A DNA stretch of 64,000 nt from positions 66,809 through 130,808 of the IMG/VR virus record IMGVR_UViG_3300022555_003222. One strand, 5' to 3'. This DNA comes from a virus. Positions 1,017 to 64,000 of the stretch are shown in pieces; within the stretch, counting starts at the first letter, position 1, and each line of letters starts with the position of its first letter. The notes under the pieces were generated by a model. It searched no databases and was not told where the DNA came from. It was given only the letters and a program-made list of their open reading frames with translations. The position numbers and the translations under genes were made by a program.

Positions 1017-1745
1017 ATGGGAAGAAAATTTATGAAATTCAGCGAATGGCTCCAAGAGCCGCTATCTAAAGGTAAATCCAAAATTGCCGTCTTTGATTTC
1101 GACGGTACGTTGGCTAATACGCCTGCCAAACCCGAAACGCCCGAAGCAATCCGTAAATCGGGTTGGGACGGAAAGGATTGGTACGGGTCAAACGTATCCA
1201 TGCCTGAAGATACGAAATTCAATGACGAAGTGGTGGCAGCATTCAAAGCCGCCAAACAAGATTCCGATACGTATGCACTTTTGCTCACGGGTCGTCGTGG
1301 AGTCATTGCACCCAAAGTTCGTAAATTGCTTCAACAAAACGATTTGATCGGCAAAAGAAAAATTGCCAGTTCAAACGCTAATGCTTTACGACATCACAAT
1401 GGCCAAGAACACCCAGCCGAAGATACTGACCCGCATTGCCATGATGAATATTACTGCGGCGATTTTGCCACGGAAGACGATTATCCGAAAACGACCAGGG
1501 GTAAATCCGATGGTAGTACCCTTGCACATAAGGTATATGTTGTCAGAAAGCTCATGCACAGTGGCATTACTCAGGTTGATTTCTGGGATGATCGTGCTGA
1601 CCATATTCCACATTTTATAAAATTAGGCATGGACCTTCAAAAAGAATGGCCAGGATTGAAATCGGTCATAATGCACAGGGTCTATCCACCTCAACATCCC
1701 GGCCAGCCAGCCTGGGTACAACATATTCCTATTAAAAACAAATAA
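1017..1745 (+). CDS. HAD-superfamily phosphatase (RNA-repair HAD-like)
   Basis: Motif I VFDFDGTL, motif II LLTGR, motif IV FWDDR. Alternative start at 1032 (MKFSEWLQE). Confidence 0.85.
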   Translation: MGRKFMKFSEWLQEPLSKGKSKIAVFDFDGTLANTPAKPETPEAIRKSGWDGKDWYGSNVSMPEDTKFNDEVVAAFKAAKQDSDTYALLLTGRRGVIAPKVRKLLQQNDLIGKRKIASSNANALRHHNGQEHPAEDTDPHCHDEYYCGDFATEDDYPKTTRGKSDGSTLAHKVYVVRKLMHSGITQVDFWDDRADHIPHFIKLGMDLQKEWPGLKSVIMHRVYPPQHPGQPAWVQHIPIKNK

Positions 1746-3338: not shown

Positions 3339-4004
3339 GTGAAATACATTGCAGCACTTTATGCAAACGGCAAAGTAGTCACTGGCGGTCATCACGGAGA
3401 CGCTTTTACCAAACTCACTTTAGAAGACCAGCAAGGAGAAATCACTTCTGGCTTCATTGATTCTGAAACTGGCAAATTCATTTCTGACGAAATTGAATTC
3501 TATGCCAAAAACATAATTCTCATTCGCCACGCTCACGCTTGTGATTATTTTGATCCCGGTATTAGCGGTTTGGGATATTCTCAATGTGAGCGAGTAGTAC
3601 ACTTCTTACGTGAAACTCAAAACGTACAAGAATATCAAGGATTTGCGAGTTGTTGTAATCGCACTAGAGAAACGGCCGAATTTATATTCGGCCGTTTGGG
3701 TATTCATTATGAAGTAAGACCAGATTTTTGCGATCAACGCAACTGGGATTTACCTTGCTGGAGGGCGGCTAGCCAATGGTTTGAGTCGCCCTATTCTTTT
3801 GTGGAACGGCTCCGTTATATCCTCAATACACTTCCAGCAAATTCTATCATTATTTCCCATTGCAATTTTGTTGCCAATATGGCACAATTAGCTTCTAACA
3901 CTGAGGACATTACTGAATTGCCCGAATGGAGTGGTTCAATTCCTCATTGCAGTGTGACATGTGTCATAAATAACAAATTGTTATGTATTGGTAAAACAAT
4001 ATGA
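3339..4004 (+). CDS. Histidine phosphatase (phosphoglycerate mutase family) with N-terminal extension
   Basis: IILIRHA, RTRETA and IIISH motifs. Confidence 0.8.
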   Translation: MKYIAALYANGKVVTGGHHGDAFTKLTLEDQQGEITSGFIDSETGKFISDEIEFYAKNIILIRHAHACDYFDPGISGLGYSQCERVVHFLRETQNVQEYQGFASCCNRTRETAEFIFGRLGIHYEVRPDFCDQRNWDLPCWRAASQWFESPYSFVERLRYILNTLPANSIIISHCNFVANMAQLASNTEDITELPEWSGSIPHCSVTCVINNKLLCIGKTI

Positions 4005-7527: not shown

Positions 7528-7728
7528 ATGGAACGACGAAATTTTTTAGCCATGCTTAGCATGAGTGCTGTTTTACCATTCTGTGGTGAAATCAAGCCGG
7601 TGCCACCACCGCCACCTAAACCCTTGCCACCAAGAGATTATCCAGATCCTAAAAAGGCCAACGGCCTATGCGAGAATAAAAAACATGAGCATCCAAGAAA
7701 TAGTAGTGCTGTCCAGGTCAAAGGCTAA
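7528..7728 (+). CDS. Small protein with Tat-like signal peptide
   Basis: MERRNFL twin-arginine motif followed by hydrophobic stretch; AAGGA RBS. Confidence 0.55.
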   Translation: MERRNFLAMLSMSAVLPFCGEIKPVPPPPPKPLPPRDYPDPKKANGLCENKKHEHPRNSSAVQVKG

Positions 7729-8119
7729 AGAGTTTACTTGCGACCGACCCTGGGCAGCTATTAGCATATCGAGTTTTGAAGGTGATTTACCGAAACTCAA
7801 TATGTGTCAACGAGTAGATCTTTTGCAATTGATTTTTGAAGATACAGAATTCAACCGATCCGATTGTTTTCAACCAGAAGACGCTAAAAGAATACTTGAA
7901 TTCGTTGAGAAAGTAAAAGATAAGATAGAAGTCTTGCTTGTGCATTGTTTCGCTGGTTGGTCTAGATCACCAGCCGTAGCAGCCGCTATTGATAAGATAT
8001 TCAACAACAAAAACGAGAAAGAGAATATGCACTATTGGACTCACTATGAGCCCAATATGCTAGTGTATAAAACTATCGTAGAGACATGGAGTGCAGGCCA
8101 TGAGGTGCCTCATTATTAA
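7685..8119 (+). CDS. Cys-based protein tyrosine/dual-specificity phosphatase
   Basis: P-loop VHCFAGWSRS (HCx5R); start placed at MSIQEIV. Confidence 0.88.
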   Translation: MSIQEIVVLSRSKAKEFTCDRPWAAISISSFEGDLPKLNMCQRVDLLQLIFEDTEFNRSDCFQPEDAKRILEFVEKVKDKIEVLLVHCFAGWSRSPAVAAAIDKIFNNKNEKENMHYWTHYEPNMLVYKTIVETWSAGHEVPHY

Positions 8120-14839: not shown

Positions 14840-15343
14840 CTATAGTGTATTTAATTTCTTTTGCACAATCACATCCACTTCCTTAATGGCAGCATCCGTT
14901 GCTTTTTGCAAAGCCTTTTCATCCACATCATCTTTCTTGGCTTTTTTGCGAATATTACGAATCGCTACCCTCGCATCTTCCGCCGAACGACGGATGTGTG
15001 ATGAGACTTCTTCTTTCTGACCATACTTCTGTGTGCTAACCACAACCCTGTCTTTGGAAAAAACATAAGCCGTGAAACCAGCACCAGAAATAGCTTTCGC
15101 AATCCGGCCCATAATGCCAGGATCTTCTTTGAGAATAAATGGATCAAAAAGAGAAACGGAAACTTGATCTTTAATCGCTTCCGTATTTGTCAGATGTTCC
15201 AAAGGAATCATTTGGCCTTTGAAACTGACTTTGATAGATGAAATCAGATTTGGACTAATCTGACTTCCACGAATTCCTCGCAATTGCTGCGATAATACAT
15301 CGACACTTTGGGACATCTTGTTGATGGCCTCTACTAAATTCAT
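14840..15343 (-). CDS. frr: Ribosome recycling factor homolog
   Basis: LRGIRGSQISPNLISSIKV...AEDARVAIRNIRK...LQKATDAAIKEVD matches RRF signatures. Confidence 0.88.
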   Translation of the reverse strand: MNLVEAINKMSQSVDVLSQQLRGIRGSQISPNLISSIKVSFKGQMIPLEHLTNTEAIKDQVSVSLFDPFILKEDPGIMGRIAKAISGAGFTAYVFSKDRVVVSTQKYGQKEEVSSHIRRSAEDARVAIRNIRKKAKKDDVDEKALQKATDAAIKEVDVIVQKKLNTL

Positions 15344-28854: not shown

Positions 28855-29517
28855 TCTCCTTGATGATGTTGACTGTTGTTGATTGAAGTTATACACCTGG
28901 ACTAAGCTGCTTTTGCAAGGGCCAAAGCAACTTTATTGTCGAACCCGCAGGCCGTATAAAATCGGCTTCGGTCGAATCGGGGGTTGTCATAGCAAGCCAC
29001 GATCATGTCGTAGCAAGCCTGGGCTTGAACACGCTGGCCGCAGTTGACCAACTCACGGATATGCCGTGCAAACTCGACAAAGTATTTCTTACTCATGGTT
29101 GATTTCCTTTCACTTGCAGTTATACACCGGCACTATGCCGCTTTAACTGCCGATGGTTGCCCGTATCGCAGCCAGTTGGCCGCTTCGTCACGGGGAATGT
29201 CATACCAAATGTCGCCGCTGGTGATCTGGCACTTACGGGTGACTACATTCACCAGCACATACCAAGGGCCAACCGAATAAATATGGTTGTGGGGTTGGTA
29301 GGTATGAAACAACTTAGTTGCTTTCTTGCCAGTCATCGTTCGGTTCCTTGTGGTTGATTGTTGAACACCGGCAGTTATACACCTGCACTCAACAGGATAA
29401 AATCAGATACACGACGTACAGAACGCTTGCCATGAACACACAGTCCACGACGTATCGGTGTGGATAGGTTAGCCACTTACGCATGATTGCTCCAAAAAAG
29501 TGATGTTAGTTCCACAG

Positions 29518-29588
29518 TATCCCATGCGGGAATCGAACCCGCAGTTCCAGATTGAAGGTCTGGCGTCATTCCGTTAGACCAATGAGAC
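29518..29588 (-). tRNA. tRNA-Glu (UUC), atypical C33, no encoded CCA
   Basis: Acceptor GTCTCAT/ATGGGAT, D arm GTC..GAC, anticodon stem CCAGA/TCTGG with loop CCTTCAA, T arm GCGGG-TTCGATT-CCCGC. Confidence 0.85.
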
Positions 29589-32707: not shown

Positions 32708-33116
32708 GTTACTGATCCTGTTCGGGGAACTCTGGAACGCCTGCCCATTCCAAAAGCAGAACGTCGCCCGGCTCGATATACTCCGCTAGTGATTGTAGCT
32801 CGGATATTTCACCGTAGCTGATACATTCAGCCTCAATCTCGCCACGCAGGTATTCCAGTCGCTCTTTGATTTTCTTCTTGGTCATGGTTGGTTTCCTTTG
32901 CTGTTGGTTATACACCCGGACTCACCCACACCCACCATTGTCCAGGGGTATAATCTTGCCGCACTCCTCACAACGATATACGTCGTTGCAAGCCTGCTTG
33001 CCGATCTTGATTAGTTTGCCGCCACATTCACACTTGACTTCCTTTTCAGTATCCGCATCCCTGCACTCACAGGTGCATAACATTAGATTGCCTTTTAAGT
33101 GGTTAATGAAAACAAG

Positions 33117-33201
33117 TGGGAAATAAGGGAATCGCACCCCTTGACCTCTACCACACTTAATAGGTCAACGCATTTACAGTGCGCCGTGTGGAATATCTCC
33201 C
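33117..33201 (-). tRNA. D-armless tRNA-Tyr(GUA)-like RNA with long variable arm
   Basis: Acceptor GGGAGAT/ATTTCCC plus A; anticodon arm GCGCA-CTGTAAA-TGCGT; variable stem TGACCT/AGGTCA; T arm AGGGG-TGCGATT-CCCTT; no D stem. Confidence 0.7.
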
Positions 33202-33436
33202 TGGAATTAAATCCCTGAAACTAACTGGCCCTTCTCGTCATAACATCGTTGAATATGTTGGACAAGAACCGGCAACACTCCCATGTTTCGTAGTTCTATC
33301 GCTCGCTCCTGCTCGTTCTTGCCAACCAAGGCAAGCAAAATCTCATAAAGATTCATGGTATGGTTCCTTTGCCTTTTGTTATACAACTGCACTCAAGAGA
33401 TAGCCCCACCCTGCTTCGCAGGGTGGGGCTTGTATA

Positions 33437-62711: not shown

Positions 62712-64000
62712 GCGGCGTAAAGCCCCTACATTCCAAAGGAATGTTTGCTCTGTGAGTGAGGAAGTGAGGCGTAGCCGAACGACCGCATGAACAGGGCGAA
62801 CCTCTTTAGGGTAGTGGGATGTAAGCCGCATAATAAAAATAATTTTGGAATTGTTTATAATTTTTACGATTGTAATACTATATAAGAGTGATGGATAGAA
62901 TCACTCAATTAAAAATCACTAGAGAAAAACGAAAATCACAAACTTGTAAAGTATATGAAGCCAAGATTGATTATTCACATTTATCTAAATCTGTCAAGAG
63001 TCATTTCAGTGGTTTGTTTCGTGAAGCCAAGTGGTTCTATAATTATTGTCTTTCCCATGATAATGTCAATGATGCTGATACAACCATTCGCACTGTTCCA
63101 GTCAAAGTAAATGATGAATATGAAGATCGTAAATTATCCATTCTTTCATCTCAAGCAAAGCAAGGAATTAAAACAAGATTGTTCGGTAGTTTATCTTCGC
63201 TTCATTCTTTGAAAAACAATGGACATAAGGTAGGACGACTCAAATTCAAAAGTCAAATCAACTCAATACCACTCAAGCAGTTCAACAATTCTTATTATAT
63301 TCGTAATGGAAAACTAAGGATTCAAGGAATGAAACAATGGTTGCGAATCAATGGACTTGAGCAAATACCAAAGGACGCTGAAATTGCTTGTGCAACTTTG
63401 ATAAGGAAAAGTGGTGATTATTATATTCACATTACGACTTATGTTGAAAAACAAGAACAAGTAATTCCTGAAGCAATAATTGGTATTGATTTTGGTTGCG
63501 AAACACAATTAACTTTCAGTAATGGAATTAAAGTTCAATTTCAAGTTTCGCCATCTAAGCGTTTGCGTAAACTTGATCGCAAGATAATGAGAAATAAAAG
63601 AGCAAAGTCCAACAACAAAATCAAAGATCAAGTAAAAAGACAAAAAGAGTATGAGTATTTAACTAATAAGAAAAAGGACATTAGACATAAGATTATAAGT
63701 GCTATCACAAAAAACCATAAGTATGTTTGCTTTCAAGATGAAAGCATTCACGCTTGGACAATGAGTGGGCATGGAAAGAAAATTCAACATTCAGGTATTG
63801 GTGGAATAATTAGCGATTTGAAGCACAAATCATGTACGCCACTTGAAGTTGATAAGTTCTTTCCATCAACCAAACTTTGTCCAAATTGTAGAAATAAAAA
63901 CATACTTTTAATTAGTGATAGAGTTTATGAGTGCGAGTGCGGTTTTAGTATGGATAGAGACATTAAATCTGCATTTTGTATTCAAGAAGAAGGTTTGAAA
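62712..64000 (+). mobile_element. Second tnpB-only IS200/IS605-type element (right end outside window)
   Basis: Left end gcggcgtaaagcccc...gggatgtaagccgc followed by tnpB. Confidence 0.75.
62891..64000 (+). CDS. tnpB: RNA-guided endonuclease TnpB (partial, runs off window)
   Basis: Not in ORF track. MDRITQLK..RKSQTCKVYE; GIDFG; FQDE; FPSTKLCPNC...CECG..DRDIKSA. Confidence 0.92.
   Translation, partial: MDRITQLKITREKRKSQTCKVYEAKIDYSHLSKSVKSHFSGLFREAKWFYNYCLSHDNVNDADTTIRTVPVKVNDEYEDRKLSILSSQAKQGIKTRLFGSLSSLHSLKNNGHKVGRLKFKSQINSIPLKQFNNSYYIRNGKLRIQGMKQWLRINGLEQIPKDAEIACATLIRKSGDYYIHITTYVEKQEQVIPEAIIGIDFGCETQLTFSNGIKVQFQVSPSKRLRKLDRKIMRNKRAKSNNKIKDQVKRQKEYEYLTNKKKDIRHKIISAITKNHKYVCFQDESIHAWTMSGHGKKIQHSGIGGIISDLKHKSCTPLEVDKFFPSTKLCPNCRNKNILLISDRVYECECGFSMDRDIKSAFCIQEEGLK

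Follow-up and report, generated by a model that had tools for sequence, protein, structure and literature searches.

The 64,000-nucleotide (nt) stretch of viral DNA analysed here (the window; positions 66809-130808 of IMG/VR record IMGVR_UViG_3300022555_003222) carries, at 33117-33201 on the minus strand, an 85-nt gene that resembles a tyrosine transfer RNA (tRNA), tRNA-Tyr(GUA), and has no D hairpin (Table 1). As claimed in a first-pass annotation made from the sequence, which named no strand, the Tyr features of a bacterial tRNA are all present when the gene is read on the minus strand: G1-C72, A73, a canonical CU-GUA-AA anticodon loop, a long variable arm and a T arm. The identity set of bacterial tyrosyl-tRNA synthetase (TyrRS) comprises G1-C72, A73, G34-U35 and a long variable arm, and it is complete in the window element. 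The anticodon loop has 7 nt, with U33 and a purine at position 37. The T loop, UGCGAUU, keeps U54, C56, G57 and A58 and has G at position 55, and the T stem has 4 base pairs (bp), compared with the canonical 5. The 7-bp acceptor described in the first-pass annotation (GGGAGAU/AUUUCCC, one G-U pair, giving G1-C72 and A73) is present, but it becomes an 8-bp helix once A8, whose partner is the U immediately 5' of the second acceptor strand, is counted. The gap between the acceptor and the anticodon stem, 10 nt with a 7-bp acceptor (AUUCCACACG), accordingly becomes a 9-nt connector (UUCCACACG), which runs directly into the anticodon stem and fits the form U-Y-C-C-N5 by which the family described below is defined. 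A D hairpin between positions 9 and 26 is impossible in the window element, as these 9-10 nt hold no local stem. The variable hairpin has a 6-bp stem and a 14-nt loop (AUUAAGUGUGGUAG), and the complementarity noted in the earlier annotation holds exactly: the CCACAC of the connector (strand A) is perfectly complementary to GUGUGG within this loop (strand B), giving 6/6 Watson-Crick pairs.

Table 1. Positions (window numbering, except for the tRNA arrays in the last row) of the parts of the rewired tRNA-Tyr gene and of other features
Feature	Position	Strand	Remarks
Whole rewired tRNA-Tyr(GUA) gene, 85 nt	33117..33201	-	G1 = 33201; A73-equivalent discriminator = 33117
Acceptor 5' strand, positions 1-8, GGGAGAUA	33194..33201	-	8/8 pairs with 33118-33125
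Acceptor 3' strand, UAUUUCCC	33118..33125	-	From sequence and family pairing
Connector U9-U10	33192..33193	-	From sequence and family comparison
Pseudoknot strand A, CCACAC, positions 11-16	33186..33191	-	Perfect complement of 33151-33156
G17, joins strand A directly to anticodon stem	33185	-	From sequence
Anticodon arm, 5-bp stem GCGCA/UGCGU, loop CUGUAAA	33168..33184	-	Anticodon GUA at 33175-33177
Variable-arm stem 5' strand, UGACCU	33162..33167	-	6 bp with 33142-33147
A/U-rich linker AUUAA, variable stem to strand B	33157..33161	-	From sequence
Pseudoknot strand B, GUGUGG, positions 46-51, inside variable loop	33151..33156	-	Equivalent of D-stem 5' strand
Triplet UAG after strand B	33148..33150	-	Putative counterpart of D-loop positions 18/19
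Variable-arm stem 3' strand, AGGUCA	33142..33147	-	Pairs with UGACCU
T arm, 4-bp stem GGGG/CCCU, loop UGCGAUU	33126..33140	-	From sequence
Upstream small open reading frame, 61 amino acids, no family match	33207..33392	-	Stop 5 nt before the tRNA gene
Downstream Cys-rich open reading frame, 53 amino acids, no family match	32922..33083	-	ATG at 33083; several CxC/CxxC motifs
Cassette of ~500 bp, two small open reading frames plus tRNA	32900..33402		Joints 32899>33403 and 32925>33401
HAD domain of 'Swiss Army Knife' RNA repair proteins, HAD_SAK_1	1017-1745	+	PHROG polynucleotide kinase
Further entries of the RNA-repair-type set: histidine phosphatase; dual-specificity-phosphatase-like, below Pfam cutoff	3339-4004; 7565-8119	+	
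Ribosome-recycling-factor homolog	14840-15343	-	Pfam RRF 49.8 bits, cutoff 29.7
TnpB/IS605 OrfB-like protein, running past the window end	62888-64000	+	Cas12f1-like TNB 36 bits; OrfB_IS605 below cutoff
Planctomycete tRNA arrays: Lacipirellula limnantheis; Novipirellula sp. SH528 (two arrays); Novipirellula herctigrandis	L489-L492		

Standard tools overlook the element, as had been suspected. ARAGORN made a single call in the window, a tRNA-Glu at 29517-29588, and Rfam at its gathering thresholds reported the same tRNA-Glu only, with no RF00005 match to the element; at relaxed thresholds the best Rfam match was tRNA-Sec, at 20.8 bits against a gathering threshold of 47 (E 0.18). Relatives of the element are missed as well: ARAGORN called it in 1 of 113 relative loci (some of these loci being the same contig twice) and in neither of two cultured-phage members, and in eight relative loci Rfam reported no family at gathering, with tRNA-Sec appearing below threshold (about 33.5 bits) in two. 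Taken alone, the complementarity in the window element is modest evidence. When a 10-nt stretch is compared with one of 14 nt, the probability of a perfect 6-bp Watson-Crick match arising by chance is 0.009 at the composition of the element and 0.047 when only the variable loop is shuffled, and the folding z-score of the element (-1.62) is unexceptional. The match in this single sequence is no more than suggestive; the decisive support comes from relatives.

Relatives were collected with sequence patterns and with two covariance models, one built from the window element alone (R1) and one built for the family from 78 training rows that include the window element (R2). R1 was first run on 59 IMG/VR loci that had been fetched only by a pattern of the Tyr anticodon loop plus the T loop UGCGAUU. 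It matched L049 at 60.2 bits (E 2e-17) and L008, L023 and L045 at 44.1 bits; in the latter three, the element sits between a tRNA-Ser and a tRNA-Leu. Members found with R1 also include one at 41 bits. R2 scores the window element at 72.9 bits, a value inflated by its being 1 of the 78 training rows, and found no second copy in the 130.8-kb record. A layout-specific pattern returned 98 IMG/VR stretches, in 96 of which both an anticodon stem and an acceptor of 8 bp could be parsed, and a pattern with a relaxed T loop returned at least 119 stretches, with further members among them. A metagenome pattern scan returned at least 118 stretches, mostly chance matches, and yielded two members (L080 and L154): when R1 was run on the first 80 of these loci, four passed E 0.1 and only L080 was a clear member, and L154 was added by a script run over all loci. 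The layout scan of GTDB returned 79 stretches, 47 of which parse as members; most of the 32 that do not are transfer-messenger RNA 3' ends of Alcaligenaceae and relatives. Other candidates dropped were L018/L104 and L143 (23.3 bits), for which no member parse was found by eye, and L249/L259, which represent a false parse across two tRNAs. Searches by plain similarity were less productive: an exact 23-mer of the element had no match in IMG/VR, and neither the 2.5 kb around the element nor two other family members gave a blastn match among cultured phages.

With all scans pooled, the homolog search that had been proposed in the first-pass annotation yielded at least 121 distinct sequences with the rewired layout, 81-94 nt in length, the window element included. 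Common to them are an acceptor of 8 bp and a connector of 9 nt, then an anticodon arm; a variable hairpin whose loop holds a sequence complementary to the connector and, after it, a GG-type triplet; and lastly a T stem of 4 bp and A73. A script that tested all connector lengths found exactly 10 nt between the 7-bp acceptor and the anticodon stem in members, compared with 18-25 nt in ordinary class II tRNA-Tyr genes. In scans that left position 9 free, all 12 distinct sequences have U9; one cultured-phage member has A there. The pseudoknot pairing was never a collection criterion for the sequences behind the covariation test.

Base pairs were counted on a MAFFT alignment of 78 distinct sequences. 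The acceptor helix (columns 1-8 with 87-94) is 99.8% paired, with double changes in 8/8 pairs, and its eighth pair, 8:87, is formed in 78/78 (GC 50, UG 11, AU 9, UA 8). Because this pair always forms and covaries, we describe the acceptor as 8 bp, the T stem as 4 bp and the connector as 9 nt. The anticodon stem is 99.7% paired, and the T stem is effectively 4 bp in the alignment as well. The helix joining the connector to the variable loop (columns 11-17 with 50-56) is paired in 95% of cells and has double changes in all seven of its pairs, with such diverse compositions as UA 28, GU 19, CG 18, AU 7 and GC 5 at pair 14:53, and AU 33, CG 22, GC 9, UA 9 and UG 3 at pair 15:52. The observed values were reached by 0 of 500 column shuffles, and sliding the partner by 1-3 columns lowered pairing from 91% to 41-52%. 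Covariation of the pseudoknot helix is as strong as that of the acceptor stem.

The wider set of 121 distinct sequences gives the same picture. Strand A pairs with its own variable loop at 6/6 positions in 111 sequences and at 5/6 in the remaining 10, strand-A hexamers come in 39 different forms, and pairing strand A with the variable region of another member gave 6/6 pairs in 11% of trials. The variable stem is 4-7 bp in 108/121 members, and strand B is preceded by a linker of mostly 5-9 nt (88% A/U) and followed by 3-5 nt. G1-C72 is found in 120/121, A73 in 119/121 and an encoded CCA in 67/121. These data, which amount to the covariation test suggested in the first-pass annotation, support the earlier proposal that a pseudoknot takes the place of the D arm in a non-canonical tRNA fold. 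The first-pass annotation had also allowed for a simple deletion pseudogene, to be recognised by an absence of covariation and of a processed RNA; on the side of covariation, what we found is extensive.

The D loop of an ordinary tRNA touches positions 55 and 56 of the T loop through G18 and G19. Members of the rewired family carry, directly after strand B, a triplet that reads UGG in 101 sequences, with CGG or AGG in a few others. In 111/111 sequences that have U55 this triplet has G in the middle, and in 10/10 that have G55 it has A there, the window element (UAG) being one of the ten, and the switch can be seen within a close Pirellulaceae group, in which CGG accompanies UUCGAUU and UAG or AAG accompanies UGCGAUU. 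Because the middle base tracks position 55, one of the two positions that G18 and G19 normally contact, we read the triplet as a relocated G18-G19 element. By eye, the A's of the AAG-type G55 members L049 and L080 could pair with U10 and U9, and the UAG of the window element could pair with U9 only. On this model the variable loop has taken over both the D-stem partner strand and the GG element, so that the D arm appears to have been rewired, not deleted.

The G55 T loop also occurs outside the family. Among phages, a set of ordinary class II tRNA-Tyr genes with a D arm (L005-L063, e.g. L016, L027 and L012) shares UGCGAUU, and most of their D loops follow the type UAAAGUAG, which lacks a central GG; several of these genes escape ARAGORN. 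D loops without a central GG in ordinary G55 tRNA-Tyr genes fit the reading of the triplet as relocated G18-G19.

Relatives of the element typically reside among other tRNA genes. ARAGORN found other tRNAs flanking 94 of the 113 loci, with all 346 neighbours on the same strand; of the 77 distinct sequences, 66 lie near other tRNA genes. The GTDB members come mostly from Planctomycetota (Rhodopirellula, Novipirellula, Rubripirellula, Neorhodopirellula, Lacipirellula, Fuerstiella, Phycisphaerae and other metagenome-assembled genomes), with a few in Alphaproteobacteria and other bins. Four tRNA arrays from three planctomycete genomes were examined (25-29 genes in 5-11 kb; Table 1), and all four contain no canonical tRNA-Tyr and have the rewired gene in its slot. 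One planctomycete array holds every isotype except Cys. The canonical planctomycete tRNA-Tyr is located elsewhere, in a Thr-Tyr-Gly-Thr cluster, as called by ARAGORN in two genomes and indicated by a pattern match in a third. R2 with strict filters detected the element in 6 of 151 sampled Planctomycetota genomes, indicating that the family behaves as a sporadic, mobile trait and not as a core gene. Two members were found in cultured phages, Rhizobium phage RHph_N3_2 (MN988526.1; L622:1492-1577, 66.9 bits with R2) and Pseudomonas phage Rembedalsseter (PQ464593.1; L623:513-597, 75.7 bits with R2). Both are solitary, have a perfect 6-bp pseudoknot, lie at unannotated sites and have T loops outside the search patterns.

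The family is not restricted to Tyr anticodons. A scan that left the anticodon free gave, among the matches listed (at least 120 stretches), 57 distinct members, with the loops CUGUAAA (29), CUGUAAC (22), CUUCUAA (5) and CUCCUAA (1). The last two carry the Arg-type anticodons UCU and CCU (6/57 distinct members, L541 being the one with CCU), and these members have an 8-bp acceptor, a UUCC connector, a 6/6 pseudoknot and GGUGG in the variable loop. The five UCU members (L624-L628, from L509, L510, L519, L564 and L569) lie in co-oriented phage tRNA clusters and received no ARAGORN call. Some contigs also contain a canonical-looking tRNA-Tyr(GUA) about 20-160 nt from the rewired gene (L374, L271/L363, L321/L343/L364 and L291). 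One such canonical-looking neighbour appears to start with C1.

The nearest relatives of the window copy are two IMG/VR sequences, at 81% identity, and a Pirellulaceae array gene, at 78%. The window copy and the Pirellulaceae array genes share the connector UUCCACACG (a string that also occurs in L307/L351), strand B with UAG, the G55 T loop, A73 and the CUU trailer. Where the window copy departs from these relatives in the stems (acceptor, anticodon, variable and T), it does so by paired changes that leave every helix intact, which argues for selection on structure and against decay. The resemblance to planctomycete genes hints at, and does not prove, a planctomycete host for the window phage; alignment of the window tRNA-Glu with the tRNA-Glu genes of the arrays gave no host signal.

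The window was taken from a 130.8-kb IMG/VR virus record that is classed as a provirus; CheckV puts its completeness at 26%. Recognised genes in the window include a UvrD-type helicase, a Clp protease and Hsp20, in addition to those listed in Table 1. G+C content rises from ~0.40 in the flanks to 0.46-0.57 across about 20000-54000 (34 kb), a region packed with small, mostly minus-strand open reading frames that have no PHROG or Pfam match; it looks like a hypervariable cassette region. The element occupies the gap between two such small open reading frames (33207-33392 and 32922-33083). An upstream 180-amino-acid protein has relatives at three loci, where only its C-terminal DUF7417 is matched and neither a tRNA nor the element is present. 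Near-identical DNA occurs in freshwater and lake metagenomes from several studies; no RNA runs are listed among the sequencing runs with such DNA, and one of four DNA runs compared covers the element, without differences. In contigs of two runs, 32899/32925 is joined to 33401/33403, indicating that the ~500-bp cassette comprising the tRNA gene and the two small open reading frames is absent or replaced in some lake populations; in some contigs, 1193 other letters stand in its place. The upstream boundary of the cassette is marked by a G+C-rich hairpin at 33402-33430, with a sub-threshold NsiR1 match (26.9 bits vs 39).

We consider it probable that the element is a working tRNA-Tyr, encoded by an intact gene with a structurally rewired D arm and belonging to a widespread family that annotators do not see. 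In the fold we propose, the 8-bp acceptor would stack on the 4-bp T stem, such that the usual 12-bp branch is kept. The CCACAC of the connector would take the place of the 3' strand of the D stem and pair with the GUGUGG of the variable loop, and the resulting pseudoknot helix could, like a D stem, continue the stack of the anticodon stem. The triplet, UGG in most members and UAG here, would act as G18-G19, docking on the T loop to form the elbow. The RNA would be excised from a polycistronic transcript and gain CCA, host TyrRS would charge it by way of G1-C72, A73, GUA and the long variable arm, and the rewired tRNA would then decode UAY codons for the phage. Transcription, processing, aminoacylation and decoding, as well as any resistance to nucleases, are steps that we infer from the gene and its relatives.

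The advantage of such a fold may lie in conflicts over host tRNA. The Septu and retron-Eco7 PtuAB nucleases are described as cutting tRNA-Tyr in its variable arm, with phage tRNA-Tyr genes acting as a countermeasure (PMC13096335, PMC11555353), and the tRNA-Tyr of phage T5 is said to resist through a distinct variable loop (PMC13096335). Since the variable arm is where these enzymes cut, locking it in a pseudoknot could plausibly allow escape, and changes to this arm and to the D region could, speculatively, make the rewired tRNA a poor substrate for host nucleases directed at tRNA-Tyr. This rationale is a hypothesis, much less certain than the proposal that the element is a working tRNA-Tyr. 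The most far-reaching version of our proposal is that the family constitutes a widespread new tRNA topology, with a pseudoknotted D stem and a G18-G19 element in the variable loop, that is used by phages and mobile arrays, serves Tyr and more rarely UCU and CCU anticodons, and yields a fully functional decoder that nucleases of the PtuAB/Septu type neither recognise nor cut; as a whole, we regard this version as possible and rather doubtful.

Several observations weigh against a working tRNA-Tyr. The search patterns fix the anticodon loop and most of the T loop, and the layout pattern used in the IMG/VR and GTDB scans also fixes U9-Y10-C11-C12, so that conservation at these positions arises partly by construction; in addition, the pair statistics ignore kinship among the sequences. 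The window copy does not encode CCA and has CUU after A73, and its G17 lies opposite A45, leaving it without the seventh pseudoknot pair that 70/121 members form. It is also solitary, the nearest tRNA being the tRNA-Glu on the same strand 3.5 kb away, and a promoter scan near the element found no promoter-like site. Absence of the cassette from related populations indicates that the element is dispensable to them. The link between the triplet and position 55 could reflect a lost elbow contact and not an A:G contact, with the variable loop and the T loop being coupled under either explanation. Finally, the UCU and CCU members, together with the canonical-looking tRNA-Tyr neighbours, weaken a story of purely Tyr-specific replacement.

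Some of these same observations could be explained if the element were a decaying class II tRNA-Tyr pseudogene in which most of the D arm was deleted and CCACAC and GUGUGG match by chance. The missing CCA, the odd G55 T loop, the solitary position and the variable cassette would all be expected of such a remnant, the match alone is only moderately unlikely by chance (0.009-0.047), and the z-score of -1.62 does not set the fold apart. Decay, however, would not produce an identical connector length in 121 distinct sequences from phages, metagenomes and bacterial arrays, nor compensatory changes in the pseudoknot, and the window copy has all of its helices intact and matches G55 with UAG as all 10 G55 members match theirs; we therefore judge a pseudogene highly improbable. 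The cassette raises another alternative, that the element is a structured RNA with another role (for example in recombination or attachment, or as a processing signal of the cassette) that merely looks like a tRNA. Integrases often target tRNA genes, and the ~500-bp cassette is swapped or absent in related lake populations. The joints of the cassette (32899/32925 and 33401/33403) nevertheless fall outside the element, its relatives sit within ordinary tRNA clusters, and no integrase was found among the neighbouring open reading frames searched, making this the least probable of the explanations we considered.

An alternative that accepts the tRNA-like fold is that the RNA is a non-decoding mimic, a decoy or inhibitor that soaks up a tRNA-Tyr-directed nuclease or TyrRS and thereby protects the tRNA-Tyr of the host or phage. 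The canonical-looking tRNA-Tyr beside the rewired gene in some contigs suggests that the two may have different jobs, and the RNA-repair-type genes of the window phage (HAD_SAK_1/polynucleotide kinase; Table 1) fit a conflict over tRNA. Overexpressed phage tRNA-Tyr, moreover, partly protects host tRNA-Tyr from Septu, and possible roles as a decoy or a supplement are discussed (PMC13096335). In the four near-complete planctomycete arrays, however, the rewired gene is the only Tyr gene, and the conserved 12-bp branch, A73, G1-C72 and CCA are constraints to be expected for charging and for use by EF-Tu and the ribosome, and go beyond what a decoy needs. Genomic context and the conserved identity elements together favour a decoding tRNA over a decoy, which we consider unlikely.

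If the element is indeed a working tRNA-Tyr, its implications extend beyond this phage. A 2024 report states that all known bacterial tRNAs are cloverleaves (PMC11551756); a functional decoder with the rewired fold would contradict that statement, as a naturally occurring exception whose strands are connected differently. It would mean that standard annotators systematically miss a whole class of tRNA genes, and it would explain 'missing' tRNA-Tyr genes in phage clusters and arrays, Tyr being among the rarest isotypes in tRNA arrays according to a survey (PMC4758250). It would also test how much rebuilding of the tRNA core is tolerated by TyrRS, RNase P, EF-Tu and the ribosome, offer synthetic biology a natural and possibly orthogonal scaffold, and present a candidate structural route for phage escape from tRNA-cutting defences. 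The copies in cultured Rhizobium and Pseudomonas phages make the question directly testable.

Full-text literature searches, whose scope excluded most subscription journals and supplements, turned up no bacterial or phage tRNA described as pseudoknotted or D-armless, and none with a D arm built by a pseudoknot. The rewired family can nonetheless be set beside several known systems, each of which it resembles in part. With canonical bacterial class II tRNA-Tyr it shares G1-C72, A73, the CU-GUA-AA loop, the long variable arm and the T-loop core, and it differs in having no D hairpin, an 8/4 branch in place of 7/5, and a variable loop enlarged to accommodate the D partner and the GG-type triplet. 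Bacterial tRNA-Sec (RF01852), the only Rfam model that matches, also has an 8-bp acceptor, a 6-bp D helix and a long variable arm; in contrast, the rewired genes score under 47 with this model, have the anticodon GUA and not UCA, lack a D hairpin and have a T stem of 4 and not 5 bp. The tRNA-like structures at the 3' ends of plant RNA viruses are pseudoknot-dependent tRNA mimics, some of which are tyrosylated. In these structures, however, the pseudoknot builds the acceptor arm, and they are non-decoding parts of a genomic RNA.

Mitochondrial D-armless tRNAs, such as tRNA-Ser(AGY), likewise have a short connector and no D hairpin, but they have lost the arm and the D/T elbow contact, whereas the rewired family would supply both from its variable loop (PMC7609411, PMC11551756). 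The counter-defence tRNA-Tyr species of phages T5 and T6 are also phage-encoded and have a variable arm unlike that of the host, yet they are ordinary cloverleaves (PMC11555353, PMC13096335). Many features are shared with the (8/4) tRNAs and allo-tRNAs, which have a 12-bp branch of 8+4, a long variable arm and a D helix of ~6 bp, and which occur in phage tRNA clusters; these were reported for Ser, His, Cys and Sec-like species, and by term counts the report names no Tyr species ('tyr' appears once, among its references) and never mentions a pseudoknot (PMC5389517). The (8/4) tRNAs and allo-tRNAs keep a contiguous D hairpin with a long stem and a tetraloop (PMC5389517). That group combines an 8/4 or 9/3 branch with such a hairpin; the window element has the 8/4 branch without a contiguous D stem and tetraloop and therefore falls outside its definition; its D helix is instead assembled from two distant strands, one in the connector and one in the variable loop.

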